A program made the translations under genes and the position numbers. A DNA stretch of 64,000 nucleotides from Candidatus Pelagibacter sp. (GTDB lineage: Bacteria > Pseudomonadota > Alphaproteobacteria > Pelagibacterales > Pelagibacteraceae): the NCBI RefSeq assembly GCF_052049995.1, contig NZ_JBNGYX010000001.1, forward strand, positions 57,850 through 121,849, written 5' to 3'. The notes beneath the pieces are model-generated. The model worked only from the letters and a program-made list of their open reading frames with translations. It had not been told where the DNA came from and did not search any database. Each line of letters begins with the position of its first letter. Within the stretch, counting starts at the first letter, position 1. This document shows positions 21,878 to 49,617 of the stretch, piece after piece.

Positions 21878-21926
21878 AGATAGTCCTTCTTAGCCATCTT
21901 TAGCTCCCGGTTTTTAAGGACTATCT
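21878..21926 (+). promoter_or_regulatory. Candidate cis-regulatory RNA hairpin covering the RBS of the LysE/RhtB gene
   Basis: AGATAGTCCTT (21878-21888) pairs perfectly with AAGGACTATCT (21916-21926); 27-nt loop; the 3' arm holds the only SD-like AAGGA. Confidence 0.6.
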
Positions 21927-21931
21927 TTTTT

Positions 21932-22546
21932 ATGCTCCCCCTAGATTTTATACTCTATCTACAGATTATTATTTTTTTATTTATTACTCCTGGAACTCCA
22001 AGGATTGTAATTATCTCTTATTCAATGAATTACGGTGTTGGAAAATGCGTATGGTCTGCTTTAGGTGATATAACTGCAAATTTTATTCAGGCAACTTTAG
22101 TTATTTTTGTGATTGGATCTTTTTTTTCAAAAAACTCAATGATACTTAATGCATTTAAATGGATCGGAATAGTTTATTTATTATATTTAGCTTACGATAT
22201 TTATAAATCTCGGCCAAAAAGCATTTCAAATGAAGGAGAAATAGAAAAAAGTAATTTATCTTTTTTTAGAGATGGTTTTTTTGTTGCTGGTACAAGTCCT
22301 AAGGCTTGGATGTTTTTTCCTTTTATATTTCCTCAATTTATTGATTTTAATTCAAATTTATTGGCACAATTTTTTATATTAATTACGACTTACATCGTTT
22401 TAGATTTTTTATCTTTGATAGGTTACGCAATGCTAGCACAGAAATTAATTAAGTGGATAACTGCAAATCCAAAAACAATAAATACAATTTCTGCGAGTGT
22501 TTTAGTAATAATTGCAGTAATAATCTTGATAACACAACAATATTAA
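21932..22546 (+). CDS. LysE/RhtB family amino-acid exporter
   Basis: FITPGTP, FKWIGIVYLLYLA, FFRDGFFVAGTSPKA, FPQFI. Confidence 0.9.
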   Translation: MLPLDFILYLQIIIFLFITPGTPRIVIISYSMNYGVGKCVWSALGDITANFIQATLVIFVIGSFFSKNSMILNAFKWIGIVYLLYLAYDIYKSRPKSISNEGEIEKSNLSFFRDGFFVAGTSPKAWMFFPFIFPQFIDFNSNLLAQFFILITTYIVLDFLSLIGYAMLAQKLIKWITANPKTINTISASVLVIIAVIILITQQY

Positions 22547-34294: not shown

Positions 34295-35463
34295 TGAATA
34301 AAAATCTTTCGTTACTTATATTAAGCCAGATTTTCGCTTTTACAGCTGCACCGGTCACCGTTTTTTTAAGCGGCATAATTGGTTCAAAATTTAGTCCAAT
34401 AAAATCTTTAGCTACTCTTCCAATGGCTTTGTCAGTTCTTGGAATTGCGTTATTCGCTTTTTTTGCTGCAAAGCTAATGAGTATAATTGGACGAAAATTA
34501 GGTTTTATTTTTGCATCAATAGGTACATGTTTTGCATCTCTTTTAACTGCATACTCTATAATTATAGAAAGTTTTGTCTTATTTAATTTAGGATGCTTTT
34601 TAATTGGTGGAGGAATAGCTTTTAGCCATCAATATCGTTTTGCAGCAGTGGAGGTTGTGGATAAGGATTATGCACCAAAAGCAATTTCTATCATTTTGTT
34701 AGCAGGAATAGGTTCGGCGTTTATTGGTCCAAACATTGCAAACATTTCTAAAGGACTTATCTCAAATCATATGTATGCAGGTTCTTATCTTGCACTTGCC
34801 ATTTTATCTATCTCATCAACAATTTTTTTAATTTTTTATCAGGAACCAAAAACGATATCTAGCAATCAATATAAAACTGGAAGAAGTTTTTTTGAGCTTA
34901 TCTCTCAACCTAGATTTCTACAGGCGCTCGTAGCTTCAGCTTTTGCATATGCTGTAATGACTTTTTTAATGACAGCAACTCCTATAAGTATGCATCTGAT
35001 GGAGAAAATAAGTCTAAGCAAGACTGGATTTGTTATTCAGCTTCATATAGCAGCCATGTTTTTACCTTCACTAGTTACAGGAAATTTAATTAAAAGATTT
35101 GGTCATAGTAAAATAATGTATGTGGGAGTTTTATTGTTTTTAGTCACAATTATTACCAGTTTATTTGAACAGAATTATATTAACTATATGGTTGCACTTA
35201 TTTTCCTGGGGCTAGGGTGGAATTTTCTATTCATTTCAGGAACAAGCTTACTTGTTTTGTGTTACAGAGAAGAGGAAAAATTTAGAGCTCAAGGTTATAA
35301 TGATTTAATTGTTTATTCTATACAAGCATTAGCCAGTTTGTCTGCTGGAGTATTTCTTAGCCTAACTAGCTGGAAAACTATGAATTTAATATGTTTGATT
35401 TTTCTAATTTTCATAGCTCTATCTACTATAAGAGCTGATTTAAAAAAAAACCCCAGTAATTAA
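34294..35463 (+). CDS. MFS transporter
   Basis: About 12 TM; LATLPMA, MSIIGRKLGF, QYRFAAVE, GLGWNFLF. Confidence 0.9.
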   Translation: MNKNLSLLILSQIFAFTAAPVTVFLSGIIGSKFSPIKSLATLPMALSVLGIALFAFFAAKLMSIIGRKLGFIFASIGTCFASLLTAYSIIIESFVLFNLGCFLIGGGIAFSHQYRFAAVEVVDKDYAPKAISIILLAGIGSAFIGPNIANISKGLISNHMYAGSYLALAILSISSTIFLIFYQEPKTISSNQYKTGRSFFELISQPRFLQALVASAFAYAVMTFLMTATPISMHLMEKISLSKTGFVIQLHIAAMFLPSLVTGNLIKRFGHSKIMYVGVLLFLVTIITSLFEQNYINYMVALIFLGLGWNFLFISGTSLLVLCYREEEKFRAQGYNDLIVYSIQALASLSAGVFLSLTSWKTMNLICLIFLIFIALSTIRADLKKNPSN

Positions 35464-35479
35464 ATTACTGGGGTTTTTT
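35445..35479. terminator. Bidirectional intrinsic terminator between the convergent MFS and SBP genes
   Basis: AAAAAA-CCCCAGTAATT-a-AATTACTGGGG-TTTTTT; MFS stop codon lies at the apex. Confidence 0.88.
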
Positions 35480-35495
35480 GAATTAAGATAAAAAA

Positions 35496-36686
35496 TTATC
35501 TTTGTTTTTTAGTTTTGAATTTTCCACCTTTAACTTCTTGTTCTAAGAAAGAACCTTCAGCTTCACCAACGTCAGTAAAAGTTACTCCAGTAGCACCTTC
35601 GTAATTAATCTTTTTACCTTTTGCCAGTAAATCTAAACCTTTCTTAAGCTCACCTGGATAAATTTTAGTTCCAGGAGCGTTAGCAACATCCATTACATTT
35701 TTTGCAATAGATGCTCTGTCAGCAGAGTTACCTGCTTGCATTGCAAGAACGATTAAAGCAGCTGCATCGTAAGATTCACCTGTGTAAGGACCAGAAGCTT
35801 CTACACCTCCAGCTTTTGCAACTTCAGCAAATATACCTGCACCTTTACCAGTAGAACCTGGTAATGATCCAAATGATTTACTTAAATCTTTTCCGAATGC
35901 ATCAACTAAAGATTGACCAATCATACCATCTGATAAAATAAATCTATCAAACGCACCAGAGTCTAGAGAAGCTTGAATAATTCCTTTTCCTCCTTGGTCA
36001 AGATAACCAATAACTGCTACAGCATCACCACCAGCAGAAGCAAGAGTTGCTACTTCAGATGAGTAATCTGCTTTTCCATCCTCGTGAGCAGTTACAGTTG
36101 TAACTTTAATACCATGAGCTTCAACTGCTGCTTTGTAAACATCAGCCAAACCTTTACCATAGTCATTGTTTGTATAAGTGATTGCAACACTTTTTACTTT
36201 TCTGTCTTTAGTTATATCAGCTAAAATTTGACCACCTCTAGCATCTGATGGAGCAGTTCTAAAGAAATACCCTTTGTCATCTAGAGTTGTTAATCCTGGA
36301 GAAGTAGCTGAAGGTGAAATCATTACTACACCATTTGGTACAGCAACGTTAGTTGCAATAGCACCAGTTACACCTGAACAGTCTGCTCCCATAATTGCAG
36401 CTACACCACCTGAAATTAAACCTTCAGCTGCAGCTGTTGCCGCTGCTGAGTCAACACAAGTTGAGTCTGCTCTTACTGGCTCAATTTTTTTCCCACCTAA
36501 TAGCGAACCTGAATCAGAAGCTTCTTTAAATGCAAGCTCTGCAGATGCTGCCATAGCTGGAGTTAGAGATTCAATAGGACCAGTGAATCCTAAAATAATC
36601 CCCATTTTAATCGAATGTCCGTCTGCCATTACATTTGAACCAAAACTTGATACAAACATAAATACAGCGATAAATAGTTTTCTCAT
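35496..36686 (-). CDS. Liv-type ABC substrate-binding protein (LivJ-like)
   Basis: Signal peptide MRKLFIAVF..., LGFTGPIESL, ADSTC, SPSATSP, RTAPSDA; ATG 36686 with SD GAGGA preferred over 36710. Confidence 0.9.
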   Translation of the reverse strand: MRKLFIAVFMFVSSFGSNVMADGHSIKMGIILGFTGPIESLTPAMAASAELAFKEASDSGSLLGGKKIEPVRADSTCVDSAAATAAAEGLISGGVAAIMGADCSGVTGAIATNVAVPNGVVMISPSATSPGLTTLDDKGYFFRTAPSDARGGQILADITKDRKVKSVAITYTNNDYGKGLADVYKAAVEAHGIKVTTVTAHEDGKADYSSEVATLASAGGDAVAVIGYLDQGGKGIIQASLDSGAFDRFILSDGMIGQSLVDAFGKDLSKSFGSLPGSTGKGAGIFAEVAKAGGVEASGPYTGESYDAAALIVLAMQAGNSADRASIAKNVMDVANAPGTKIYPGELKKGLDLLAKGKKINYEGATGVTFTDVGEAEGSFLEQEVKGGKFKTKKQR

Positions 36687-36793: not shown

Positions 36794-38275
36794 TTATCTT
36801 ATTGAGAAAGGGTCTAGAGAAGGTTCATCAGATGTATAGAACCAAGTTGTTTTTACCCGTGTGTAGTCTTTAACTGATTCAATTCCAGCCTCTTTTCCAT
36901 ACCCACTATCTTTAATTCCTCCAAATGGTGCAGATGGTGAAATTAATCTGTAAGTATTTACAAATGTTATACCTGCCCGGATAGCATTAGACACCCTCAT
37001 TCCTCTTGCGAGATCACTAGTATAAACACCTGAAGAAAGACCATATTGATTGTCGTTCATTAATTCAATTACCTCTTTTTCAGTGTCAAATTTCATTACT
37101 GATAATACAGGGCCAAAAAGCTCATTTTCAGCAGCCGGTAAATTATGATTTTCACACTCAATAATTGTTGGTGGAAAATAATAACCTTCATTTGAAAAAG
37201 GATGTCTTTTACCACCACATTTAATTTTTCCACCTTGTTCAACAGTTAATTTAATATTTTTTTCTATTACTTCTAATTGTTTAAAGTTACTTAAGGGACC
37301 CATTTCAGTATCAGAGTCCATTGGAGCACCTATTTTAATTTTTTCTGCTCTTGATGATAACTTATCTAAAAATTCGTTATAAATTCCTTTTTGTAAGTAC
37401 AACCTTGAACCTGCTATACAACTTTGACCACTTGCTCCAAATATTCCAGCAGTTATTCCATTAATTGCATTTTCTTGTTTAGCATCATCAAAAACAGCAA
37501 CAGGACTTTTGCCTCCTAATTCTAAACTTACCTCAGATAAATTTTCTGCAGAGTTTCTAATTATATGCCTTGCAGTTTCAGGGCCTCCTGTAAAAGCTAC
37601 TTTCTCAACTAAGTTGTGAGTAGTTAAAGCTTTACCACATGGATCTCCAAACCCAGAAACTACATTTACAACACCTTTTGGTATTCCAGTTTCTTCAACT
37701 AACTTTGCAAATTCAAACATAGTTGCTGGTGCTAGTTCAGAACATTTAATTACTACTGTATTACCCATAGCTAGAGCAGGAGCGACTTTTGTTGCAGTTA
37801 AAAACATTTGAGAATTCCAAGGAATGATAGCTGCAATAACACCTATTGGAATTCTTGTTGTGATCGCTTGAATATTTGGTTTATCTATTGGAAGAACTGT
37901 TCCTTCAACTTTGTCAGCTAAACCTGCATAGTAATCATAATATTCAGCAATGTATTTTGCTTGTTGATAAGTTTCTCTGTACAGTTTTCCTGTATCAATT
38001 GTTTCAATTTTTCCTAATAGTTCAGAATTTTCTCTAAGTTTATTTCCGATTGCTCTTAAATATTTTGCTCTATCTCTTGCAATCATCTTTGGCCATTCAC
38101 CTTCAAAAGCTTTTTGTGCAGCTTTTACAGCTCTATCAACATCATTTGCGCTAGCTTCAGGTACTATAGCCCAAGGCTTATTATTTTCTGGATTTAAAGT
38201 TTCAAAAGTTTTTTTTGTATCAGAGTCTACCCAGTGACCGTCTATAAACATTTGATATTTTTTTAATTCAGACAT
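36794..38275 (-). CDS. Aldehyde dehydrogenase, TgnC-like (trigonelline pathway dehydrogenase type)
   Basis: ALDH motifs ELGGKSP, GQSCIAGSR, ELFGPV. VAFTGGPETARHI.RNSAENL and the C-terminal SD.P..DPF..R match my recollection of Acinetobacter TgnC. Confidence 0.88.
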   Translation of the reverse strand: MSELKKYQMFIDGHWVDSDTKKTFETLNPENNKPWAIVPEASANDVDRAVKAAQKAFEGEWPKMIARDRAKYLRAIGNKLRENSELLGKIETIDTGKLYRETYQQAKYIAEYYDYYAGLADKVEGTVLPIDKPNIQAITTRIPIGVIAAIIPWNSQMFLTATKVAPALAMGNTVVIKCSELAPATMFEFAKLVEETGIPKGVVNVVSGFGDPCGKALTTHNLVEKVAFTGGPETARHIIRNSAENLSEVSLELGGKSPVAVFDDAKQENAINGITAGIFGASGQSCIAGSRLYLQKGIYNEFLDKLSSRAEKIKIGAPMDSDTEMGPLSNFKQLEVIEKNIKLTVEQGGKIKCGGKRHPFSNEGYYFPPTIIECENHNLPAAENELFGPVLSVMKFDTEKEVIELMNDNQYGLSSGVYTSDLARGMRVSNAIRAGITFVNTYRLISPSAPFGGIKDSGYGKEAGIESVKDYTRVKTTWFYTSDEPSLDPFSIR

Positions 38276-39053
38276 TATTTATATGTTTCATTATTGCATT
38301 ATTTACTTCGTCTGCATATTCAATACTGCATAAATGTTTTCCATTTTTAATTTCAACATATGTTGAATTTAGTATATCTTTATTTAAATTTTTTGACATA
38401 TCAGGCGTAGATCCTGGATCATCTGATCCTGTTATAATTAAGGTATTTGTTTTAATATTTTTTATATTTTCAAGATTGTCCTCATAGTTTGCAAATATTT
38501 CATAAGCTTTTATAAAATTTTCTTGATCAATTCCTTTCTTATTAAGAATTTTCATAAACTCATCGTATAATTCAGGGTTTTGCTCAAGGTACTCATCTGA
38601 AAACCATCTCTTCATTGCCATTTGAGATATTGGCATATTTTTTTTTGCTAAATTTACTCTATCAATTACATTTTGTCTTTCTTCAGCTGTCCTTTTGTAA
38701 GTAGTGGAAATTAGAGTTAAGGAATTTAAATAATTTTCATATTTTGAAGCAAATTCAATTGCAATCAAAGATCCGATAGAAAAGCCGATTAAATTAAATT
38801 TATCTATCTTTAGGTTATTTACTAAATTTGATAATTGATCAATAAAATTTTCCATTGATAAATTTGGTTCTTTAAAGGGTGTTTTTCCATGTCCTAACAG
38901 ATCGTAAGTTATAAATGAATTATCTTTAAAAAATTCAATTTGTGGTTTCCACATTTGCTGATTTAAACCAACCCCATGAATAAAAATTATTGGTAACGAA
39001 TTTTTATTATTAAAATAATAATGATTTTGATTGTTATCAAAATTGTAAGACAT
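38268..39053 (-). CDS. Alpha/beta hydrolase, TgnD-like
   Basis: IHGVG, nucleophile elbow GFSIG, YKRT..ER..VI.R, TGSDDPGST, catalytic His in GKHL; ATG 39053 (TTG 39056 in track). Confidence 0.85.
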   Translation of the reverse strand: MSYNFDNNQNHYYFNNKNSLPIIFIHGVGLNQQMWKPQIEFFKDNSFITYDLLGHGKTPFKEPNLSMENFIDQLSNLVNNLKIDKFNLIGFSIGSLIAIEFASKYENYLNSLTLISTTYKRTAEERQNVIDRVNLAKKNMPISQMAMKRWFSDEYLEQNPELYDEFMKILNKKGIDQENFIKAYEIFANYEDNLENIKNIKTNTLIITGSDDPGSTPDMSKNLNKDILNSTYVEIKNGKHLCSIEYADEVNNAIMKHINNV

Positions 39054-39056
39054 CAA

Positions 39057-39641
39057 TTATTTATCGATGCCCATCTCTTTCATGTCTTGATATCTGTCAC
39101 CTGTTCTTGCATGAGCTCGTCCGGTTGGAGCACCTCCAATAGCTACAACTATTTCATCTTCATTAGGGGCATCGTGAATTGTAAATTCATGCGTTAGATA
39201 AAAAGGTCTTAATCCAGCATCAGTTTTATGCATCATTGGAATTGAAATTTTTGCTCCCGCAGGGCCTCTAGTGTTAGTAAAACTTAAATAAGAAGTTCCA
39301 CCAACGGCATCTCTAAATTTATTTCCAAATCTTAAAGTATGAATAAATGCAGACGCATGTTCTATTTCACCGTTCAATCCAACCATCGCAGCTTTCCCAT
39401 AAGCTAAAATTTTTTCACCTGATCCAATTTCTTTTATTAACTCTGGCACCAAAAGATCTCCTAATTTAGGCGCAAGATCTAATATTTCTGGTTTTAAATC
39501 TTCTACAAAACCTTTTCCGGCCCAAGGATTTTCTATAACAGCTGCAACTGAAACTAACAAAACAGGCTCTTTAGCTTTTTTTCCACCCTCTATAAAAGTT
39601 TTATCTACAAATTTTGCAAATTTTCTAAGTTTTAAATCCAT
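39057..39641 (-). CDS. Amino acid synthesis family protein (DUF1185-like; TgnF-type accessory protein)
   Basis: AAVIENPWAG, YGKAAMVGLNGEIEHA, DAPNEDEIVVA, GRAHAR.GDR. Confidence 0.85.
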   Translation of the reverse strand: MDLKLRKFAKFVDKTFIEGGKKAKEPVLLVSVAAVIENPWAGKGFVEDLKPEILDLAPKLGDLLVPELIKEIGSGEKILAYGKAAMVGLNGEIEHASAFIHTLRFGNKFRDAVGGTSYLSFTNTRGPAGAKISIPMMHKTDAGLRPFYLTHEFTIHDAPNEDEIVVAIGGAPTGRAHARTGDRYQDMKEMGIDK

Positions 39642-39644
39642 TTA

Positions 39645-40811
39645 CTAGCTAGCTCTTTGAATGTTCGTATCTATCGGTTTTATATTTGGAATTACTTCTT
39701 CTGTAAATAATTTGATGCTTCTCATGCAGTCTTCGTGTTTAATTCCTGGAAAGTTAGACCAGACTTGTAAATTTTGAAGATTTAATTCTTGTTGAAGTTC
39801 TTTTATTTTTTCAATTACAAACTCAGGTGTTCCAAACAATAGATTTCTTTTATGAAGAAATTCATAATTTAATAAATCTAGTTTATTTTTTGTCTCTGGT
39901 AATTTTTCATCTGGATCCATATGATTTCCCAATCCTCTCCAATGACAAACCCATCTCATATAATTTACAATATGTTCTCCAGCCATTTTTTCAGCCTCTT
40001 CCATAGTTTCTGCAACAAACATATCTCTAACCAAACTAATACCTTCCCCTAGCGGTACATCTCTATTTTCAGCTTTAGATTTTGCATCTTTATAAATTTC
40101 AAATCTTTTTTTCAAAGCTTTTACAGTTGGTATCCACATAATTGTATTAAGCCCATTTTCTGCTGCCCACTGAATTGATCTTTCTCCATCAACTACTTGA
40201 GAAATTGGTGGAAAAGGTTTTTGATAAGGTTTTGGTAATACAGATATTTGTTTTAATTCATTTGTTTTTAAATCGACAACATTTTCTTTTGGAGGACTCA
40301 TATCGTGTTGCCAAATAAAATTTGGTGAGGGATAAGTATAGAATTCACCTTGGTGAGAAAAGAAGTCCTCAGACCAAGCTTTTTTCATTATGTCCAATGT
40401 TTCAGAAAATAGTCTAAAATTTTTTGCTTGATCTTTTAAGTCAGCTTCTTTGTTCATGTTAATGGCTTCTCTTCCGTAAACTCCTCTTCCAATACCAACT
40501 TCCACTCTTCCTTTTGACATTTGGTCAAGGGTAGCAATATCTTCTGCAAGTCTTATAGGATTATGAAATGTTATTACGTTGCAAGCTTGTCCTAAACGAA
40601 TATTTTTAGTTCTTGCAGCAGCATCAGTACACATCATTAGAGGATTAGTGCAAGACTCCATTCCCTCATGATTAAAATGGTGTTCGGTATACCAAATAGA
40701 ATTCCAATTATTTTGATCACAATATTCAGTGATTTCTCTAGCTTCGTCTAGAAGTTGGGTATAAGGTTTTTTATCCCAATTAGTAGTATTACAAAAATAT
40801 CCAAAGTTCAT
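39645..40811 (-). CDS. Luciferase-like (LLM class) flavin-dependent monooxygenase
   Basis: IWYTEHHF, NPLMM..DAAARTKNIRLG, PIRLAEDIATLDQMSKGRVEVGIGRG; ATG 40811 with SD GGAGG preferred over GTG 40853. Confidence 0.9.
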   Translation of the reverse strand: MNFGYFCNTTNWDKKPYTQLLDEAREITEYCDQNNWNSIWYTEHHFNHEGMESCTNPLMMCTDAAARTKNIRLGQACNVITFHNPIRLAEDIATLDQMSKGRVEVGIGRGVYGREAINMNKEADLKDQAKNFRLFSETLDIMKKAWSEDFFSHQGEFYTYPSPNFIWQHDMSPPKENVVDLKTNELKQISVLPKPYQKPFPPISQVVDGERSIQWAAENGLNTIMWIPTVKALKKRFEIYKDAKSKAENRDVPLGEGISLVRDMFVAETMEEAEKMAGEHIVNYMRWVCHWRGLGNHMDPDEKLPETKNKLDLLNYEFLHKRNLLFGTPEFVIEKIKELQQELNLQNLQVWSNFPGIKHEDCMRSIKLFTEEVIPNIKPIDTNIQRAS

Positions 40812-40892
40812 AAAGCCTCCTTTAAAAATTAATTTAAAGACGACCGATCCCACTTTCGTAAATTTTTGAATTTAACGACGAGTTATGTATCG
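40812..40892 (-). promoter_or_regulatory. Candidate structured 5' leader of the LLM operon
   Basis: Hairpin 40820-40839 (CTTTAAA/TTTAAAG) abuts the SD; second stem 40856-40878 (9 bp, one bulge); locally GC-richer patch. Confidence 0.35.
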
Positions 40893-40916
40893 CTTTATAG
40901 TTAAACTTTATTATTA

Positions 40917-41885
40917 CTAGCGCTGATATTCAATAAATTTCTTTAAGGATTTGTTAAGAAATTTCTCATAAATTGGACCATTATTTTTGAATTTGCTTCC
41001 GTTTAAAAATGATTGGTTCATTTTGAAATCATAGGAAGGTTCAAAGAAAAAAGGAACAGAGAGTCTCTTACTTTTATTCCATAAAACTCTGTGATTAGTT
41101 GCTTTAAATTTACCTTTGCTTAGAAACTCCAAAGCTCTACCAGTGTTTACTACTAAAGCTTTTTGTTTAAATGGCACATCATACCATTTTTTATTTTTTC
41201 TATTTTGTACCTGCAATCCACCTTTTCTATCTTGATAGAGAACTGTGAATACACCACTATCAACATGTGTTTCACATCCAAGAGCAACCCCATCTTGTTT
41301 AGATATTTCTACTGGTTTTGTCTGATTAGGATAATAATTAAATCTTAATGTGCTTAATGTTTTTAATCTTGAAAAAGCTACACTAGAAATATCAGGATTT
41401 TTTTTATTAAGTTTTATTACACTCTTAAATAAAGTTTCACTCAATCTATAAATATTATCAAAATATTTGTTTAAAATATTTATTGAACTTTTTTTAAAAC
41501 ACTCATTTAGATTAAGAAATTCTATGTATTGATTATTTAGATTTGAAGAATATTTTTTAGTTACTTTTAAATCACCTATATCCAAACCTTCTTTTCCGTT
41601 CACATCATTAGGAAAATATCCTCTGTAAAGATTTTTATTTTTTTTATTCCATTTTTTAGGTGATAATTTTCTTTTCTTAGTGTCTGGTAAATTAAAAAAT
41701 TTATGCCCAACTTCGCATGTTTTTTTAATTTCTTTTAGATTAATTCCATGTCCAGTAATTTGAAAAAATCCTACATTGACACAAGCTTTTTCAATTTCTT
41801 TAATTGTTTTAAATGCATTTTGAGTTTCAAAATTATTTTTTATTAAAGGAGAAATATTAATTGTTGGTATAAAGTTCTTGCTCAT
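40917..41885 (-). CDS. Isopenicillin N synthase family Fe(II)/2OG oxygenase
   Basis: DIOX_N start (PTINISPL...GFFQITGHG), HVD, distal His in ATNHRV, RxS in RLSVPFF. Confidence 0.9.
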   Translation of the reverse strand: MSKNFIPTINISPLIKNNFETQNAFKTIKEIEKACVNVGFFQITGHGINLKEIKKTCEVGHKFFNLPDTKKRKLSPKKWNKKNKNLYRGYFPNDVNGKEGLDIGDLKVTKKYSSNLNNQYIEFLNLNECFKKSSINILNKYFDNIYRLSETLFKSVIKLNKKNPDISSVAFSRLKTLSTLRFNYYPNQTKPVEISKQDGVALGCETHVDSGVFTVLYQDRKGGLQVQNRKNKKWYDVPFKQKALVVNTGRALEFLSKGKFKATNHRVLWNKSKRLSVPFFFEPSYDFKMNQSFLNGSKFKNNGPIYEKFLNKSLKKFIEYQR

Positions 41886-42835
41886 CTTCTAACTGGTGTT
41901 TCTGTTGCAATAAATTGCTCTTTAACTCTCTCTCTCATGTAAATATAAATTCCAGCTGCTATAATACACGCAACACCAATAAACGTTCTGGTCGTTGGTA
42001 CTTCATTAAATAAAAAGTAGCCAGGTATCATAGACATAATTATTAATGAATACTCAAACAAAGAAACAACAGAAGGTGATGCAACTATATATGCTGAAAA
42101 AATACAAACAAAAGCTATTGATGCAGCAAAACCAAAAAATAAAATAAATTTCCATGTATATTCAATATTTGAAAACCATTCTCTAAAGATGAATTGTATT
42201 GTTGGATCAAAGTTTGAATTATTAAGCTGACCACTACCCATAAAAATATATAAAATTACACACAGTAATATTGCAATCAGATAAAAGTAATATAGCTGAG
42301 TGTTAACATCATCTTTATCAGATGTATATTTAGTGATAGTCATAGATGCAGCATAACAAAATGCACAAAAAACTGGTAAAAGACTTCGATATTCAAAGTC
42401 TGAAAAATTTGGATTTAAGACTATAAAAACGCCAACAAAACCAAAAACAATTGCTGACCACCTTCTAATACCAATAGTTTCTTTTAAAAATAACTTTGCA
42501 AATATTGATACGAAAAAAGGGGAGGAAAAAAATAGAGCATTTGCTGTTGCTAAAGGCATAAAAGTTAGTGAGATAAAAAAAGCAGAAAAAGCAATAAAAT
42601 GCAAAACCACTCTTAGTATTGTTAAAAAAGGATAGTGAGTTTTAAGAGAGACTTTTTGTTTTCTGAATTTTATATAACCAAATAGCAAAATTGCTGCAAC
42701 AAAATATCTTCCAAAAAATATTTCATATAAAGCTGCTTTTTCAAAAATGAATTTAATTAAAGCATCCTGCATTGCAAAAAATGTCATTGCAGTAATAATT
42801 AAAAGTATTCCTTTTGAATTATTATTAGCGCCCAT
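41882..42835 (-). CDS. EamA/DMT family transporter
   Basis: FAMQDALIK, FSSPFF, ETIGIRRW, SVVSLFEYS. Confidence 0.88.
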   Translation of the reverse strand: MGANNNSKGILLIITAMTFFAMQDALIKFIFEKAALYEIFFGRYFVAAILLFGYIKFRKQKVSLKTHYPFLTILRVVLHFIAFSAFFISLTFMPLATANALFFSSPFFVSIFAKLFLKETIGIRRWSAIVFGFVGVFIVLNPNFSDFEYRSLLPVFCAFCYAASMTITKYTSDKDDVNTQLYYFYLIAILLCVILYIFMGSGQLNNSNFDPTIQFIFREWFSNIEYTWKFILFFGFAASIAFVCIFSAYIVASPSVVSLFEYSLIIMSMIPGYFLFNEVPTTRTFIGVACIIAAGIYIYMRERVKEQFIATETPVRR

Positions 42836-42875
42836 TATGCACCTATATCAAAAAAAAATTGTATAGAATATTTAA

Positions 42876-43337
42876 TTATTTCTTTAATTTAGAAGAGAAT
42901 AGAAGACCTTCGCTTGAAAATTTTGACTTATTTTCTTCAATAAAATCTTTCATTAATTTTACTTTTTCTTCTTCAAATTCAGTAACCTTTCTTTTGCTTA
43001 AATCTATATATAGCGATATCCATTCCATAGAAGCTGAAGGTTTGTTAGTTTTTTGAGAAATCATTTCCATTTTTAAATGTAATCTTTTTTTATCATGATC
43101 AAAATAAGTCAGATTAACATTGACCATTTCTCCCTCTTTTACCTCATTTAAATATTTAGTATTAGTTTCAACAACCATTGTACTTCTATTAAGATTTTTT
43201 GCTGCTGTTCCACCCATTTTAAATTTTTCAAGAGCAACTTCCCATGCTTGATCAAAAACAAGCACATAATAAGCCATGTTCATATGATTGTTGTAATCAA
43301 CCCATTCCTTTTTTACTTCGAAAGTTTTTAATAACAC
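42876..43337 (-). CDS. Hot-dog fold acyl-CoA thioesterase (CdhB/carnitine-pathway-like)
   Basis: EWVDYNNHMNMAYY motif, YLNEV, YFDHDKKRLHL; GTG start 1 nt after the ATPase stop. Confidence 0.82.
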   Translation of the reverse strand: MLLKTFEVKKEWVDYNNHMNMAYYVLVFDQAWEVALEKFKMGGTAAKNLNRSTMVVETNTKYLNEVKEGEMVNVNLTYFDHDKKRLHLKMEMISQKTNKPSASMEWISLYIDLSKRKVTEFEEEKVKLMKDFIEENKSKFSSEGLLFSSKLKK

Positions 43338-43338
43338 T

Positions 43339-44364
43339 TTATGATCTTGTTAATGAAGACTGTAATTCTTGGTTTGAAATGTATCCTTTTACATTTCCAC
43401 TTTTATCAACCACTTCACAATTTGAGTCAGAACAAACAATTTTTGGTAAAAAATCTTCAATAAACTCATCTTCATTTACTTTTATTAAGTTTGATTTATC
43501 TATGTCATTAGCTTGATCAGCAGTTTTCATAATAATTTTTGCCTTGATGACTTTTGCTCTATTCACATCTTTTACAAAAGCTTTTACATAATCATCAGCA
43601 GGGTTCATAATAATTTCCTCAGGGGTTCCTACTTGGACTAATTTTCCAGAGTTTAATATCCCGATATGATCACCCAATCTTAATGATTCATCTAGATCGT
43701 GAGTAATAAATACAATTGTTTTTTTTAGTTCTGCTTGAAGATCAATTAGTTGTTTTTGCATGTCACTTCTAATCAGAGGATCTAGAGCACTGAAAGCCTC
43801 ATCCATTAACATGATATCTGTATCGGTAGCTAATGCTCTTGCTAAACCAACACGTTGCTGCATTCCTCCTGATAATTGAGCGGGGTATTGATTTTCAAAA
43901 CCAGTTAGACCAACTGCATCAATTTTTTCCATTGAGATTTTATTTCTTTCATCTTCACCTTTCCCTTGCATTTCTAGTCCGTATCCAACATTTTGAATTA
44001 CTGTTTTATGCGGGAATAAACCAAATCTTTGAAACACCATGCTCATTTTATGTCTTCTAAATTCAATAAGCTTATCTTTATCAAGTGACATTACATTCGT
44101 GCCCTCAACTAAAATTTCACCATCAGTTGGATCGATTAGTCTATTTAAATGTCTTATTAGTGTTGATTTTCCCGATCCAGATAAACCCATACAAACAAAG
44201 GTTTCTCCTTCTTCAATTTTAAGCGAAACATTATCTAATCCAACGGTATGACCAGTTTGCTCTAAAATTTCGTCTTTTGTTGCACCATCTTTTACCATTG
44301 GCAGTACAGAAGAAGGGTTGTTTCCAAAAATTTTGTAAACGTTGTTGATCTCAATTTTTGACAT
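43339..44364 (-). CDS. Glycine betaine/L-proline/carnitine ABC ATPase (ProV/OpuAA class)
   Basis: KIFG, MGLSGSGKST, SMVFQRFGLFPH, LSGGMQQRVGLARALA, MDEAFSALDPLIR, FITHDLDES. Confidence 0.92.
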   Translation of the reverse strand: MSKIEINNVYKIFGNNPSSVLPMVKDGATKDEILEQTGHTVGLDNVSLKIEEGETFVCMGLSGSGKSTLIRHLNRLIDPTDGEILVEGTNVMSLDKDKLIEFRRHKMSMVFQRFGLFPHKTVIQNVGYGLEMQGKGEDERNKISMEKIDAVGLTGFENQYPAQLSGGMQQRVGLARALATDTDIMLMDEAFSALDPLIRSDMQKQLIDLQAELKKTIVFITHDLDESLRLGDHIGILNSGKLVQVGTPEEIIMNPADDYVKAFVKDVNRAKVIKAKIIMKTADQANDIDKSNLIKVNEDEFIEDFLPKIVCSDSNCEVVDKSGNVKGYISNQELQSSLTRS

Positions 44365-44489
44365 GATGTAATGTTCTAACAGTTACAATCATCATATGTA
44401 AAACAAATATTATACAACTTATAATTGTTTTAAGAAATAACAGTTGTATTTATTTGCTTTTGCTTATTTTTTAAATAAGAATTTTATTT
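44365..44489. promoter_or_regulatory. Divergent promoter region with repeated motifs
   Basis: Direct repeat TAACAGTT at 44377 and 44438; inverted repeat ATACAACT (44412-44419) and AGTTGTAT (44442-44449). Confidence 0.45.
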
Positions 44490-45221
44490 ATGGCGCAAAC
44501 AGATAAAGATGTGCGACTAGAGTTGTCTGCTCTCTATAGAATTTTACATATGTACGGCATGACAGACCTTGCTAACCAATGTGCAGGGGCAAGATCTGCT
44601 GAAGATAAGAATTGTTCTTTTGTTCATCCATACGGAATGTTTTATGAGGAAATTACCGCTTCATCTTTAGTTAAAATTGATCAAAACGGAAAAAAATTAG
44701 ATTCAGACGGACCTTGGTTAAATGACGGATGCATTAATCTTGCTCAATGGATTTTTAATAAAAGAAATGATGTAAACTTTTATGTTCACGGACATGCCAA
44801 CGATGTGATGGCAGTTGGAGGTACTAAAGAAGGTTTAATGTATCTTTCACAGGCCGCAGTTTATTTAAATCATCTTGTTGGATATATTGATTATGAATTT
44901 GTTGAGGACAAAGAATTTGGAAGTAAATTTGAAAACCTAATTAGTAAACACGATATTTTGATTACTAGAAATCATGGATATTACACAGTAGGAAAAACTG
45001 CTGCAGAAGCATTTTTCAGAGCTTATTATCTAGAGCAAGCATGTTCAGTTCAGGTAAAAAACCTTGCCATGGGGTTAAACAAACATGAAATAGATAAACA
45101 GAAAGCTGCATATTTTTGGGAAAACATGAGCGACTCCGATGATTATAATTATGATGGAAAAACGGAGTGGGCTGCTTTATTAAGAAAACTAGAGAGAGAA
45201 CATTCAAATTATAAAAATTAA
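44490..45221 (+). CDS. Class II aldolase/adducin family protein
   Basis: PYGMFYEEITASSLVKID, metal ligands HGH and RNHG, AEAFFRAYYLEQACSVQ. Confidence 0.9.
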   Translation: MAQTDKDVRLELSALYRILHMYGMTDLANQCAGARSAEDKNCSFVHPYGMFYEEITASSLVKIDQNGKKLDSDGPWLNDGCINLAQWIFNKRNDVNFYVHGHANDVMAVGGTKEGLMYLSQAAVYLNHLVGYIDYEFVEDKEFGSKFENLISKHDILITRNHGYYTVGKTAAEAFFRAYYLEQACSVQVKNLAMGLNKHEIDKQKAAYFWENMSDSDDYNYDGKTEWAALLRKLEREHSNYKN

Positions 45222-46372
45222 TGGAACAAAATTTTACAATAAAAAATATAACTAAAAATTCTACAAATTTAGAAATTGACTGGAGTGATGGAAAAAAAAG
45301 TAAATTTAATTATTTATGGCTAAGAGACAATTGTCCAACTGCACATGACAAAGACTCACGTCATAGAATGTTTAATATTTTAAAAGTATCAAACAAAATT
45401 AATCCAAAAAAATTTGCAGTAAATAATGAAGGCAAGCTTGAAATTGAATGGAGTGAAGGTGACCATATAAGTTATTATGACCAAAATTGGTTAAGAGAAA
45501 ACTGCTATACTATAAAAAATAATTTAGATTATAAATCTCCATATCAACTTTGGGACAACTCTTTACAAAATGACCTGAAGTCAATTGAGATTGAACATGA
45601 TGAAATTATGAGTTCATATGAGGGACTTGTCAGATGGTTAGAGCTCTTACACCACACTGGAATTGCTATAGTAAAAAATGCTCCAACTGAAAATAATTCT
45701 GGCTTTAAAATTTTAAACAGAATCAGCCATACTAGAGAAACTTTTTTTAAAACACCTTTTGAAGTAATTAATATCCCTAAACCAAATAATTCTGCTTACA
45801 CAGCACATGCCCTAAGAAATCATATGGATTTACCATGGTTTGAAACACCACCTGGTTATCAATTTCTTCATTGTTTAGTTAATTCTGCAACAGGAGGAGA
45901 CTCATCCGCTGTAGATGGCTTTGCAGTTGCAGATTATTTAAGAAAAAATGAGAAAGAAATATTTGATACGCTAGTAAACGTTCATTTAAAATTTAGAGAC
46001 ATGGATTATACACAAGAGTCTGTTAGAAGTTATTACGCACCCGCGATATCTCTAACAAAAGATAATGATTACCATGATATTCGGTTTAGCGTAGCAACTA
46101 TGGATGCTTTAGATTGTCATCCTGATTTGATGGATAAAGTTTATAAAGCTCATCACCGATTTGGAAATTTACTTCATGACGATCAATTCCAGATTAAATT
46201 TAGATTAGGACCAGGTGATATTTTTTCTTTTAACAATAGACGATTATTACACGGTAGAACTGAATATGATCCAAACTCAGGACATAGACATTTGCAAGGT
46301 TATTACATGGATCGAGACGAAATTATTGGGAGACTAAGATATTTAAAAAATTCTGTTAACTCCAACCAGTAA
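45221..46372 (+). CDS. Gamma-butyrobetaine/trimethyllysine hydroxylase-like Fe(II)/2OG dioxygenase (DUF971 + TauD)
   Basis: IDWSDG, WLRDNC, WLREN, NSAYT..L..HMD, FLHC, GGDS..VDGF, FNNRRLLHGR, RHLQGYY. Confidence 0.9.
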   Translation: MEQNFTIKNITKNSTNLEIDWSDGKKSKFNYLWLRDNCPTAHDKDSRHRMFNILKVSNKINPKKFAVNNEGKLEIEWSEGDHISYYDQNWLRENCYTIKNNLDYKSPYQLWDNSLQNDLKSIEIEHDEIMSSYEGLVRWLELLHHTGIAIVKNAPTENNSGFKILNRISHTRETFFKTPFEVINIPKPNNSAYTAHALRNHMDLPWFETPPGYQFLHCLVNSATGGDSSAVDGFAVADYLRKNEKEIFDTLVNVHLKFRDMDYTQESVRSYYAPAISLTKDNDYHDIRFSVATMDALDCHPDLMDKVYKAHHRFGNLLHDDQFQIKFRLGPGDIFSFNNRRLLHGRTEYDPNSGHRHLQGYYMDRDEIIGRLRYLKNSVNSNQ

Positions 46373-47786
46373 CATTCTTTACTTCAAGATATTCCTCAAG
46401 ACCCCAAACACCTCCTTCTCTCCCATTACCTGATTGTCTGTAACCACCAAATGGAGTTCCGGAATCTGCTCCATTTCCATTTATGTAAACACATCCAGAT
46501 CTTAATTTTTTAGCAACTCTGTGTGCTTTTTCTCGGTCTTCAGTTTGCAAATAATTTCCAAGACCATAAGAAGTATCATTTACAATATTGACTGCCTCAT
46601 CTTCAGTCCCAAATGGAATTATAGATAATACAGGTCCAAAAATTTCCTCTTTAGCAATTCTCATTTCATTAGTTACATTTGTAAATATAGTTGGTTTGAT
46701 AAAGTATCCTTTGTTCAAACCGTTTGGTAACTCAGGTCCACCTGCTGCAAGAGTTGCGCCTTCAGAAATACCACTTTCAATAAGATTTATAATTTTCTCA
46801 TATTGAATTTTAGAAATTACTGGTCCTATATGATCTCCCTTTTTTGAAGCTTGATCTACTTTAATTTTGTTTGCTTCATCAACAGCTTCTTTAACAGCTC
46901 TATCGTAAATTGATTTTTCAACAAGCATCCTTGTTGGTGCATCACAAGATTGACCAGAATTGCTCATTACATTTCTAATACCGTCTCTTACTGCATCTTT
47001 ATAACTATCAGCAAAAACAATATTTCCACCTTTTCCACCTAATTCAAGACAAACTCTTTTAATTGTTTCAGCAGCATTTTTTGAAATTAATCTTCCTGCT
47101 CTTGTTGAACCTGTGAAAGAAACCATATCAATATCAGGGTGGGTTGAAATGTGGGTTCCCACTCCTGCGCCGTCTCCATTTACCAAATTAAATACACCTT
47201 TTGGAAAACCTACTTCATCAATCATTTCTGCAAATAGCATTCCAGAAATAGGAGCAATTTCTGATGGTTTTAAAATCATTGTACATCCAGTTGCGAATGC
47301 AGGAACGACTTTTAAAGTAATTTGATTAATAGGCCAATTCCACGGTGTGATTAATCCACAAACTCCAATTGGCTCATAATAGATATGATTATTTGATTTA
47401 TTATCAAAGTGTTCATCAAATTTAAAATTTTTTAATCTTAAAATAAAATCATCTAAATGATCTTTCCCTGAAGCTGTTTGAACATCTGTTGCCCAATCCA
47501 TTGGCGCACCCATTTCAAGAGAAATAGCCTCAGCCATTTCATTAAATCTTTTTTTATAAACTGATGATAATTTTTCAAGTAAACTGAGCCTTTCTTTCTT
47601 GCTAGTTTCTTTCCAAGTATTAAAGGCATTTTTTGCTGATTTGACAGCTAAATCTGTATCCTCTTTTGAACCTAAAGAAATAACAGCAAACGGATCTTCA
47701 TTGCATGGATTAATTACGTCAAAATCATTTTTTTTAATTGGATCAACCCACTGACCATTTATGTAAAATTTCCTTTTATCTAACAT
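46356..47786 (-). CDS. Aldehyde dehydrogenase family protein
   Basis: ITPWNWP, FTGSTRAG, ELGGKG, NSGQSCDAPTR, EEIFGPV; stop overlaps the dioxygenase stop region by 17 nt. Confidence 0.93.
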   Translation of the reverse strand: MLDKRKFYINGQWVDPIKKNDFDVINPCNEDPFAVISLGSKEDTDLAVKSAKNAFNTWKETSKKERLSLLEKLSSVYKKRFNEMAEAISLEMGAPMDWATDVQTASGKDHLDDFILRLKNFKFDEHFDNKSNNHIYYEPIGVCGLITPWNWPINQITLKVVPAFATGCTMILKPSEIAPISGMLFAEMIDEVGFPKGVFNLVNGDGAGVGTHISTHPDIDMVSFTGSTRAGRLISKNAAETIKRVCLELGGKGGNIVFADSYKDAVRDGIRNVMSNSGQSCDAPTRMLVEKSIYDRAVKEAVDEANKIKVDQASKKGDHIGPVISKIQYEKIINLIESGISEGATLAAGGPELPNGLNKGYFIKPTIFTNVTNEMRIAKEEIFGPVLSIIPFGTEDEAVNIVNDTSYGLGNYLQTEDREKAHRVAKKLRSGCVYINGNGADSGTPFGGYRQSGNGREGGVWGLEEYLEVKNVTGWS

Positions 47787-47806
47787 TTTTTATCTTAACA
47801 CATTAA

Positions 47807-48748
47807 TTAAATTTCATATCCTTTTTCCTCAGGTTCGCTATCAACCAACTCATCAGGAAAACCATTAGCTCTAAAATTAATATTATTTAAATCCTCCATC
47901 CTTTTCACAATCATTGATGACCAAGCTCTAGAACCATATTTTTTTTGACCATCTTTGAAAATTTCAACTATTTGTGGAGAAATTTCTAAAAGAGCATTTA
48001 TTTTTTTAGCAAGATTATTAAATAAACTTGTGTCTTTTAAAACCAAATCCATTGTAAAGTTTATATTATAAGATCCATTTAATATAACCTGACTTTCAGT
48101 TTCATGCACAAATGAATTACCAGAGGAAATAGCAATCCCTTTATAAGTTTTTGCTAAATCTAAATTAGATTTTTTTGCTACAGTCCAAGCCTCACCTAAT
48201 GCAACTAAATGTGCAGATGCTAGATAATTTGTAATTACTTTTAATACACTTGCTGTACCAAGCTCACCAGTGTGCAATATTTTTCTCCCCATAACAATTA
48301 ATACAGGTAAAATTTTTTCAAATGCTTTTCTTTCTCCACCCACGAATATAGAAATATTACCTGTTGCTGCTCTATGACATCCGCCACTAACAGGTCCATC
48401 CATAGGTATAGCTTTTTTTTCTATTACTTTTTTTCCAATTCTTTTAACCTCATTTTCGTCTGTGGTACTCATTTCTAACCAAATTTTATTCTCTGACAGT
48501 CCATTTATAATTCCGTCATCAGCCTCCATCACTTCAGCGGATACTTCGGGGGAAGGAAGAGATGTAATTATTAAATCAGTTTTTTCTGCTAATTCTTTTG
48601 GCGATTTTGCTACCTTAGCACCTAAGTCTTTTAGAGGATTTGTTAAATTTTCATCTATATCTCTTACTGTAAGATCAAAGTTATTTCTTAATAAACTTCC
48701 AGCAAGTTTTCCTCCAACATTACCTAGACCAATAAATCCAATTTTCAT
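47807..48748 (-). CDS. NAD(P)-dependent beta-hydroxyacid dehydrogenase (3-hydroxyisobutyrate dehydrogenase family)
   Basis: GFIGLGNVG, DGPVSGG, catalytic Lys in LKVITNYL. Confidence 0.88.
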   Translation of the reverse strand: MKIGFIGLGNVGGKLAGSLLRNNFDLTVRDIDENLTNPLKDLGAKVAKSPKELAEKTDLIITSLPSPEVSAEVMEADDGIINGLSENKIWLEMSTTDENEVKRIGKKVIEKKAIPMDGPVSGGCHRAATGNISIFVGGERKAFEKILPVLIVMGRKILHTGELGTASVLKVITNYLASAHLVALGEAWTVAKKSNLDLAKTYKGIAISSGNSFVHETESQVILNGSYNINFTMDLVLKDTSLFNNLAKKINALLEISPQIVEIFKDGQKKYGSRAWSSMIVKRMEDLNNINFRANGFPDELVDSEPEEKGYEI

Positions 48749-49617
48749 TTTATTTCCTCTTCCTTTTTGTTTTTTTTAAATACAATTAAAATCACACCAA
48801 CTATGATTATTGTACCACCTATAAATAATTCTGAAGTTGGTTTTTCACCTAAAAGAAATATTGCTGCCAATAAACCGGTTGGTGGTATCCCCATAGTTAC
48901 AATCGGTAGAACTTTATAAAGTGGGTTATTTTTTAAAACATAATAGAAACAACCGTATGTAATTGGTTGCATGATGAAACCAATATAAATAGCAATAATC
49001 CAATGATTAAATTTTGCATTTGTTAGATAATTAATTGTATTTCCATCAATTATCGCAGATGACATTATTAATATCGGTCCAGAGAATAATGCTAACCAAG
49101 CAACTAACGCTAAAGGATTTATTTCTTTACTTAAAGGTTTAACCATAACTTGTCCAAGAGCCCATACAGCAGATCCTAAAATTGTAAGTCCAATTCCAAT
49201 AAATTTTCCATCCAAGTTAGGAGATCCAGTTAAAATATAAACACCAACAAATGCGATAGCTATACCAATCAAAGCTCTGATCGTTGGTTTTTCTTTAAGC
49301 ATGAAGTAAGCAAAAATGACTCCAAACGGAACTTCCATCTGAACCAAAAGAACTGCTGAAGATGCATCAATTAAATCTAAACCAGTATATGTAATGCTAT
49401 ATTGCAATGTATTAGCGACTAATGATGCAGCAAAAATTCTTTTTAAATATCCTCTTGGAATTGGAAACCACCAAATTAATAATGATGCAGCAAATGTAAA
49501 TCTGATACCCATTAAAAGAATAGGAGGAAAAGATTCAAATGCTGGTTTAGCTATTACAAAACCAAAGCCTAAAAATATAGGCACCAAGGATGCTACGAAA
49601 GTATCTTTTATATTCAT
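48745..49617 (-). CDS. EamA/DMT family transporter
   Basis: FPPILLMGIRF, VQMEVPF, LLGEKPT; about 10 TM. Confidence 0.88.
   Translation of the reverse strand: MNIKDTFVASLVPIFLGFGFVIAKPAFESFPPILLMGIRFTFAASLLIWWFPIPRGYLKRIFAASLVANTLQYSITYTGLDLIDASSAVLLVQMEVPFGVIFAYFMLKEKPTIRALIGIAIAFVGVYILTGSPNLDGKFIGIGLTILGSAVWALGQVMVKPLSKEINPLALVAWLALFSGPILIMSSAIIDGNTINYLTNAKFNHWIIAIYIGFIMQPITYGCFYYVLKNNPLYKVLPIVTMGIPPTGLLAAIFLLGEKPTSELFIGGTIIIVGVILIVFKKNKKEEEIK

Follow-up and report, generated by a model that had tools for sequence, protein, structure and literature searches.

Gene content of the block and its variants among SAR11 genomes

The window analyzed here, 64,000 nucleotides (nt) from the genome of Candidatus Pelagibacter sp. 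(contig NZ_JBNGYX010000001.1, positions 57,850 to 121,849), contains, at its positions 36,794 to 46,372, a compact block of ten catabolic and transport genes around a single divergent spacer, which an earlier note had proposed to be an accessory island for the catabolism of N-methylated osmolytes. The host, a Pelagibacter (SAR11) bacterium, has a 1.31 Mb genome with 30% guanine plus cytosine (GC) that is 99.96% complete. The block is probably one version of a flexible island of SAR11 subclade Ia, that is, a mosaic of modules for N-methylated osmolytes, not one pathway. Gene calls come from a listing of open reading frames (ORFs) together with Pfam and NCBIfam scans of the proteins of the window; G000 denotes the genome of the window, and G and L numbers denote the compared genomes and loci, respectively. 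The block comprises the following features:

36794..38275, minus strand: ALDH1, a TgnC-like aldehyde dehydrogenase (ALDH), the last gene of the Tgn-like module (Pfam Aldedh)
38268..39056, minus strand: a/b hydrolase, TgnD-like (Pfam Abhydrolase_1)
39057..39641, minus strand: DUF1185/AA_synth protein, TgnF-like (PF06684, 219 bits)
39645..40811, minus strand: luciferase-like flavin monooxygenase (LLM) of 388 amino acids, in the TgnB position (Pfam Bac_luciferase)
40917..41885, minus strand: 2-oxoglutarate (2OG)-Fe(II) oxygenase of the IPNS/DIOX_N type (Pfam)
41882..42835, minus strand: EamA/DMT transporter (Pfam EamA)
42876..43337, minus strand: 4HBT_2 thioesterase, similar to CdhB, the betainyl-CoA thioesterase (Pfam; C-terminal domain of NF005716, E 4e-17)
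43339..44364, minus strand: ProV, ATPase of a quaternary-amine ATP-binding cassette (ABC) importer (TIGR01186, 366.1 bits against a cut-off of 326.6)
44365..44489, no strand: divergent intergenic spacer of 125 nt with a CAACT-N3-AATTG element
44490..45221, plus strand: class II aldolase-fold metalloenzyme (Pfam Aldolase_II)
45221..46372, plus strand: GBBH-type 2OG dioxygenase (GBBH-like_N and TauD domains)

The scans reproduced the layout given in the earlier note, namely, ten genes, the 125-nt spacer, a 107-nt gap on the left and, on the right, a 17-nt overlap shared by the GBBH gene and the convergent ALDH2 gene. The left gap is obtained with the start of the neighboring substrate-binding protein (SBP) gene at 36686, which yields 396 amino acids as in its relatives. 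Only the LLM start had to be changed: translation begins not at the upstream GTG but at the ATG at 40811, which follows an AAGGAGG ribosome-binding site. This start gives 388 amino acids, matching thousands of relatives, and leaves a 105-nt gap between the 2OG oxygenase gene and the LLM gene. The EamA gene overlaps the 2OG oxygenase gene by 4 nt, and the aldolase and GBBH genes are joined via a TAATG overlap. As stated in the earlier note, the block lacks a regulator gene, an integrase and flanking repeats, and the Pfam, repeat and Rfam scans also detected in it no transposase, tRNA, direct repeat or Rfam element; consensus promoter and terminator scans of the block gave matches at chance level. 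A classical mobile genomic island was considered and rejected: a mobility gene, a tRNA target, direct repeats and deviant composition were all not found at the block, the GC content of which equals that of the genome.

The variants of this region were defined by DNA comparison with 40 relatives and by gene maps of 30 regions. The flanks are conserved, with livM-(MFS)-SBP on the left and an Amdase-family (arylmalonate decarboxylase-like) gene on the right, and the gene content between them varies. The window layout is found, at 95-100% amino acid identity, in G089 and G087, and the same layout occurs in the single amplified genome (SAG) contigs L171-L173. Exact-sequence look-ups of proteins from relatives returned generic names but identified HIMB5 and Candidatus Pelagibacter sp. 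HIMB1493 among the relatives; HIMB1493, HIMB1506 and HIMB1611 have the layout with the aldolase. The short form, in G018, reads SBP-ALDH1-hydrolase-DUF1185-LLM-thioesterase-EamA2-Amdase-family gene, the 2OG oxygenase-EamA pair being missing, and the variant of HIMB5 (G013) consists only of the four Tgn-like genes and a small EamA gene. The long form (G004, G005 and G024) adds genes identified with Pfam as GDPD, SDR, 3HCDH (carnitine dehydrogenase, CDH), BKACE, an HpcH-type lyase, a second TauD and a GMC oxidoreductase, as well as OpuAC and ProW in G024, and carries a thiamine pyrophosphate (TPP)-dependent enzyme between the LLM and DUF1185 genes. In close relatives, GFA, DAO, GMC or TPP-enzyme genes are inserted between the modules, with the rest undisturbed. 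In G055, a glutathione-dependent formaldehyde-activating (GFA) gene lies between the thioesterase and ProV genes (L053:11408-11806) and a DAO-type FAD oxidase gene between the 2OG oxygenase and LLM genes (L053:6113-7264); both insertions fit demethylation chemistry at this hot spot.

Marker genes were tallied in 226 genomes of the same genus, each at least 80% complete, in 27 genomes of the sister family (f2) and in 47 genomes of other genera of the family:

LLM: same genus 119/226; sister family 8/27; other genera 0/47
GBBH ortholog: same genus 118/226; sister family 24/27; other genera 0/47
BKACE: same genus 88/226; sister family 25/27; other genera 0/47
aldolase ortholog (at least 84% identity): same genus 31/226; sister family 0/27; other genera 0/47

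The region is therefore accessory, as the earlier note had it, with markers present in 14-53% of the same-genus genomes and in none of the 47 from other genera. The parts, moreover, assort separately: the LLM occurs without GBBH in G013 (HIMB5), G043 and G045, both GBBH and ProV occur without the LLM in G093, G098 and G114, and the aldolase accompanies GBBH in only 31 of 118 genomes. Because the sub-blocks occur independently, as these LLM-only and GBBH-only genomes together with G018 and HIMB5 demonstrate, the view of the block as a single pathway or unit does not hold; the genome carries its own variant of a flexible island of the replacement type at a fixed site, a mosaic of at least four independently assorting modules.

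Three further features of the window adjoin the block:

35496..36686, minus strand: Liv-type SBP, left flank (Pfam Peripla_BP_6)
46356..48748, minus strand: ALDH2 (BADH-like) and a HIBADH-family dehydrogenase, right of the block (Pfam)
48745..49617, minus strand: EamA2, another EamA/DMT transporter, lying between HIBADH and the Amdase-family gene of the right flank (Pfam EamA)

ALDH2 and HIBADH are missing from the short version in G018 and belong to a published island (see below), so the right boundary that had been drawn at GBBH is too tight: these two genes are variable island content outside the block. EamA2 is retained in G018 at 91% identity, between the thioesterase and the Amdase-family gene, and is 88-97% identical in the other mapped layouts; it is a conserved edge gene, not variable content.

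A trigonelline-pathway-like module

The four leftmost genes of the block (LLM, DUF1185, a/b hydrolase and ALDH1) resemble the trigonelline cluster tgnABCDEF of Acinetobacter baylyi ADP1, reportedly described by Perchat et al. in 2018. In that pathway, the TgnC dehydrogenase acts on the ring-opened lactol (MFMB). A plasmid search with the DUF1185 query led to two tgn-type clusters: on plasmid NZ_CP094644 of Acinetobacter sp. PK01, PGAP-named tgnA, tgnB and tgnC lie beside genes for DUF1185, an a/b hydrolase, a permease and a succinate-semialdehyde dehydrogenase (SSADH), and on a Rhizobium leguminosarum plasmid, the order is flavin reductase-ALDH-LLM-hydrolase-CMD, with a divergent DUF1185 gene. 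ALDH1 is 50% identical to Acinetobacter TgnC over 491 amino acids and is the best TgnC match in the genome, other ALDHs reaching ~33%. The DUF1185 protein, which belongs to a protein cluster of more than 12,000 members and is encoded by a single-copy gene adjoining those of the LLM and the hydrolase, shares 57% identity with the TgnF of Acinetobacter and 60% with the homolog on the Rhizobium plasmid. The hydrolase is 27% identical (E 4e-41) to that of the Acinetobacter cluster, compared with 30% between the Acinetobacter and Rhizobium hydrolases, and an SSADH-like ALDH (39% identity) is encoded elsewhere in the genome. In the trigonelline pathway, the SSADH is assisted by TgnF, itself a DUF1185 protein (PMC7913881).

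Hence the downstream enzymes appear to be good homologs of Tgn enzymes, and we infer that the module is trigonelline-pathway-like and serves an N-methylpyridinium-type substrate, with trigonelline as the leading candidate. The FMNH2-dependent LLM would open the N-methylpyridinium-type ring, with reduced flavin supplied from elsewhere in the genome, and the TgnC-like ALDH, the TgnD-like hydrolase and the TgnF-like helper would carry the product to succinate semialdehyde, methylamine and formate.

Several observations weigh against trigonelline itself. The LLM is only 24% identical to the annotated TgnB, compared with 42% for the Rhizobium LLM; the two tgn-type clusters are otherwise 53% identical to each other in TgnF, 45% in TgnC, 30% in TgnD and 38% in TgnA. 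The best plasmid match of the LLM is an unrelated Peribacillus LLM (35%) in a locus with no syntenic context, and when a large protein set was searched with the LLM, all matches were SAR11 metagenome proteins that are nearly identical to it and bear generic names. The LLM occupies the TgnB position and is not a TgnB ortholog, belonging to a different LLM lineage. Furthermore, tblastn yielded no match to the TgnA flavin reductase in the genome, and no PF01613, PF00881 (nitroreductase) or PF00175 (Fre-type) protein is encoded in this 99.96%-complete sequence. Given that the LLM is not a TgnB ortholog and that a PF01613 flavin reductase is absent, the module may use a substrate other than trigonelline. 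The only flavin-reductase candidate is a Flavodoxin_2/FMN_red protein of 195 amino acids, encoded 125 kb away (G000:C1:223097-223684), which may supply the LLM with FMNH2; its gene adjoins a convergent second GBBH paralog (33% identity; G000:C1:223097-224732, locus L033:2098-3778).

The module also exists as a second allele, and two hydrolase alleles with a mutual identity of only ~45% are present in the genus. In the second allele, a 566-amino-acid TPP-dependent enzyme is encoded between the LLM and DUF1185 genes (L013:6818-8518 in G004, L053:3120-4823 in G055 and L030:8012-9822 in G028); its hydrolase and LLM are, respectively, ~45% and 77% identical to those of the window. The sister family has the TPP form as well, so this form could be the ancestral one; its substrate may also differ.

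The principal alternative for this part of the island is that the Tgn-like module of the window acts on a non-trigonelline substrate, such as another N-heterocycle, a lactone or an aldehyde-acid, and re-uses the downstream Tgn-type enzymes. Besides the low LLM-TgnB identity, the missing TgnA and the existence of the TPP-containing allele, this is favored by structure-sequence matches of the LLM, which point to Baeyer-Villiger-type enzymes. However, the TgnC and TgnF homologs are 50% and 57% identical to their counterparts, the hydrolase is about as divergent as expected from the Acinetobacter-Rhizobium pair (27% versus 30%), and trigonelline is an abundant metabolite in the sea (PMC8269262), so that this alternative, although a serious one, seems to us rather unlikely. 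The homarine hom operon (PMC13236597) was considered as well and rejected: homA is ~700 nt long and encodes a FAD-binding protein, homB is ~1,700 nt long, and no gene of the block fits either.

In the variants that show the left edge, the Liv-type SBP gene follows ALDH1 in the same orientation, with or without a small EamA gene, and lies next to livHMGF; this SBP may serve as the uptake protein of the Tgn-like module. The SBP survey of Clifton et al. 2024 makes no mention of trigonelline, carnitine or butyrobetaine. Between the convergent MFS and SBP genes, at 35445-35479 of the window, a perfect inverted repeat (AAAAAACCCCAGTAATT / AATTACTGGGGTTTTTT), with arms of 17 nt around a loop of 1 nt, looks like a putative bidirectional terminator.

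Betaine-type genes and the dioxygenase-aldolase pair

The GBBH-type dioxygenase aligns with human BBOX1 over the full length. Conserved residues include H202, D204 and H347, which we take to be the Fe ligands of BBOX1, R360, presumably the 2OG arginine, and N191, Y194 and Y366, presumably contacts of the trimethylammonium and carboxylate groups; the protein has F in place of Y177 and lacks the N-terminal Zn site (C40, C43). In G025, a genome of the sister family, the GBBH ortholog (60% identity) belongs to the operon BKACE-CDH-GBBH-M24-BHMT-DMGDH, convergent with proXWV, which, judging from its gene content, encodes the full route from gamma-butyrobetaine via carnitine and glycine betaine to sarcosine. 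Given the BBOX1 alignment, this operon context and the fact that the best NCBIfam score of the protein is with the GBBH model TIGR02409, gamma-butyrobetaine hydroxylase is the best-supported function of GBBH and probably the correct one. Against this assignment, the TIGR02409 score of 314.9 bits falls below the cut-off of 414.75 and N292 of BBOX1, presumably a carboxylate contact, is replaced by S. The TmpA model scored lower, with 268.6 bits against a cut-off of 400.

Directly upstream of GBBH, the window has the class II aldolase, in which the HxH...H metal triad and the catalytic Glu are invariant in the ortholog alignment. Among the 118 genomes of the genus that carry GBBH, ~84 have BKACE, 31 the aldolase and ~3 neither; the aldolase ortholog is directly upstream of GBBH in all 31 genomes, and in none of them does it co-occur with BKACE. 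We also scanned species genomes with the aldolase ortholog alignment and obtained 53 loci outside SAR11; most belong to marine Rhodobacterales, Kiloniellales or Hyphomicrobiales, and a few to Gammaproteobacteria. A GBBH-like dioxygenase gene is directly adjacent to the aldolase gene in 34 of these 53 loci, upstream in 27 and downstream in 7 (examples are among L094-L145, e.g., L094:1801-4762 of Kiloniella sp.). These dioxygenases share 26-31% identity with their SAR11 counterpart, and the best NCBIfam match of both members scanned is GBBH. A divergent AraC-family gene is present in 33 of the 53 loci, the one member scanned giving GbdR as the best match. Five loci have CaiB-like CoA-transferase genes nearby (homology cluster c4, of which one member was scanned), and two have a gene for a CaiD-like hydratase (cluster c13). 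In view of the invariable adjacency in the genus, the frequent pairing outside SAR11 and the GbdR-like regulator genes, the aldolase-GBBH pair is a conserved functional unit tied to quaternary-amine catabolism, of which we found no description in the literature searched.

In the maximum-likelihood tree, the SAR11 aldolases form one clade (support 100/100), which is nested (100/99) among orthologs that include loci with the order aldolase-then-dioxygenase. The aldolase is 99-100% identical at the amino acid level across the separate species representatives G089, G308, G164, G087 and G096, and its neighbors EamA, HIBADH and hydrolase vary more among the same genomes, which suggests a recent spread or sweep of this segment.

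We infer that the aldolase takes the place of CDH and BKACE in this SAR11 lineage; its step could be retro-aldol cleavage to betaine aldehyde, decarboxylation or dehydration. A more specific scheme can be proposed only tentatively: GBBH and the aldolase might constitute a CoA-free hydroxylate-then-cleave or -decarboxylate route for gamma-butyrobetaine/carnitine-type betaines that is under GbdR/CdhR-like control in marine Alphaproteobacteria, was acquired once by the SAR11 lineage, displaced CDH-BKACE-thioesterase and feeds a BADH-like ALDH and BHMT/DMGDH. Two considerations count against such a replacement. To our knowledge, there is no precedent for a class II aldolase cleaving carnitine directly, as expected from the fact that a free carboxylate is a poor aldol donor. 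In addition, because the aldolase-bearing genomes are the closest relatives of the genome of the window and the SAR11 aldolases form one clade, the mutual exclusivity of aldolase and BKACE may stem from one or a few ancestral events instead of functional replacement.

The ProV gene lacks a permease or binding protein gene at its locus, and the genome contains an ATPase-less OpuAC-ProW pair 71 kb from the block (G000:C1:173371-175324), divergent from a Rieske oxygenase gene that is followed by BHMT and DMGDH. In G025, the orthologs of ProV (57% identity) and ProW (67%) are adjacent; both are absent in HIMB5 and G018, and both are present, although apart, in G004 and G024. Given this adjacency and co-occurrence, ProV is not an orphan but the split-off ATPase of the remote OpuAC-ProW importer. 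A second, complete betaine-type ABC system is encoded next to a glycerol kinase gene, 44 kb downstream of the block (G000:C1:144059-149314; L031) and consists of OpuAC, a ProV paralog (45% identity) and a 717-amino-acid double permease; in G004 and G005, the counterpart of this system sits inside the flexible island.

Far less can be said about the remaining genes of the block. The 2OG oxygenase has no NCBIfam match and is at most ~30% identical to solved structures and plasmid homologs, and plasmid searches with this enzyme and with the aldolase found no informative relatives (identity of 36% or less). Its gene travels with the EamA gene, both being variable and absent in G018; under the mosaic interpretation, the two would make up a module of their own, a pair without an assignable substrate. 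The thioesterase gene adjoins BKACE and 3HCDH genes in relatives. A genome-wide search found no BKACE, CDH, GDPD or HpcH in the genome of the window, and the thioesterase has no evident substrate source there, which weighs against the mosaic interpretation.

The right half of the mosaic can then be pictured as two modules. In the first, the thioesterase would be a remnant of a carnitine module (CDH-BKACE-thioesterase) and ProV a remnant of a proXWV operon that would still function as the ATPase for the OpuAC-ProW importer 71 kb away, beside BHMT and DMGDH. In the second, GBBH would hydroxylate gamma-butyrobetaine or a close analog and the coupled Zn-type class II aldolase-fold enzyme would process the hydroxylated product, replacing the CDH/BKACE route, so that carbon and methyl groups would feed glycine betaine, dimethylglycine and sarcosine, with the participation of the convergent BADH-like ALDH2 (best NCBIfam match BADH, 427 bits, below the cut-off). 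The absence of BKACE, CDH, GDPD and HpcH, the lack of a known producer of the thioesterase substrate and the longer versions in relatives could also mean that the entire right part (thioesterase, ProV and GBBH) is a functionless remnant left after the loss of CDH, BKACE, SBP and permease, with the aldolase as a hitch-hiker. We consider this improbable, however: no ORF of the block is disrupted, and the ORFs keep 82-100% identity among many species of this streamlined lineage; the ATPase-less OpuAC-ProW pair needs ProV and co-occurs with it; and the aldolase is translationally coupled to GBBH in each of the 31 genomes, with orthologs paired with GBBH-like dioxygenases in other phyletic groups.

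The CAACT-N3-AATTG element is kept in the otherwise unalignable ProV|GBBH or ProV|aldolase spacers of diverged relatives, and a related perfect palindrome, TCAACTGTTAGTTGA, is present in the OpuAC|Rieske-BHMT spacer (G000:C1:175325-175600). Across the genome, the count of the strict motif does not exceed chance (7 found versus 5.8 expected). The element and the palindrome could be a shared operator of a split betaine regulon. A conserved element suggestive of shared control of ProV and aldolase-GBBH, the tight packing with overlaps of 1-8 nt around a single 125-nt spacer and the recurrence of the layout in G089, G087 and the SAG contigs are what could be expected of one coherent pathway or regulon in which all ten genes serve a single betaine-type osmolyte and are run from the divergent promoter, but the independent occurrence of the sub-blocks in many genomes, the genes inserted between modules in close relatives, the gap and separate ribosome-binding site before the LLM gene, and the homology of the left half to a complete, separately known pathway make this very improbable. 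Thus, the mosaic of modules appears to be the appropriate description. The assignment of the block to N-methylated osmolytes is upheld by the Tgn homologs, by GBBH with its ortholog in the betaine operon of G025 and by the quaternary-amine ABC ATPase.

Elsewhere in the window, upstream of a LysE/RhtB gene, Rfam detects an rhtB small RNA (21861-21943; 80.8 bits against a gathering score of 55).

Comparison with known systems

SAR11 are the most abundant heterotrophs in the ocean, and the osmolyte range of each lineage shapes fluxes of carbon, nitrogen and methyl groups. At the locus described here, one hot spot swaps entire catabolic modules among species. An abundant, unannotated set of SAR11 genes is now linked to the trigonelline pathway, an apparently orphan ABC ATPase is explained, and a conserved dioxygenase-aldolase pair without a described function is singled out that is directly testable with HIMB strains and purified enzymes. 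If the proposed role of this pair is correct, a hydroxylase and an aldolase-type enzyme together seem to stand in, in a way not described so far, for the enzymes that usually degrade carnitine. A flexible betaine island of SAR11 is a known kind of locus, and this version joins a Tgn-like module with a reduced butyrobetaine/betaine module; new here are the pairing of the aldolase with GBBH, which is complementary to BKACE, as well as the divergent LLM without a reductase and the split ProV. The impression of the earlier note that the combination corresponds to no described pathway is, therefore, only partly borne out, given that the left part matches the tgn families and the right part overlaps a published Arctic island.

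With the tgn cluster, the window shares a clustered set of families, namely, an LLM oxygenase, a DUF1185 helper, an a/b hydrolase and an ALDH. In contrast to that cluster, the window module contains no TgnA flavin reductase, regulator or cytosine-permease-type transporter and is followed by a Liv-type SBP instead, and a second allele of it in the Pelagibacter genus carries a TPP enzyme. Compared with the pathway from carnitine to glycine betaine (CdhC, the BKACE CdhA, and CdhB), the window encodes a GBBH-type dioxygenase and a CdhB-like thioesterase, but the genome has neither CDH nor BKACE, and the partner position is taken by a class II aldolase-fold enzyme. Similarly, with respect to the ProVWX/OpuA importers, the ProV protein passes the proV subfamily model and the genome encodes its cognate OpuAC and ProW, but the operon is split, with the ATPase in the island and the permease and SBP beside betaine demethylation genes.

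The closest published counterpart is a glycine-betaine island of 17-20 genes found in half of 16 Arctic SAR11 Ia.1 isolates (PMC12421898; mBio 2025). Its genes encode HADH, ALDH, a VOC protein, GPDP, BBOX(1), ProX/W/V, SDR, CDH and BKACE, as well as a class II aldolase, ACOT, SMR, BBOX(2), CHDH and DMT. Mobility genes are absent from this island, the phylogeny of which conflicts with that of the core genome (PMC12421898). The long form in G004, G005 and G024 matches this gene list, and these three genomes also carry the 2OG oxygenase and the Tgn-like module, which are not among the 17 genes listed in the paper. The locus in the window lacks GPDP, SBP, permease, SDR, CDH, BKACE, BBOX(2) and CHDH, only distant paralogs of GMC and TauD275 are encoded elsewhere in the genome, and LGL and SMR were not seen, although no search was aimed at either. 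The window version, in turn, adds the aldolase upstream of GBBH; the class II aldolase of the Arctic island, although of the same Pfam family, is another paralog (31% paralog group) in a different position. Six members are shared by the two islands: the HIBADH-family dehydrogenase (HADH), ALDH2 (the Arctic ALDH), GBBH (BBOX(1)), the ProV ATPase, the thioesterase (ACOT) and the EamA transporter of the block (DMT). Both are flexible islands of Pelagibacter without mobility genes and with a patchy distribution.

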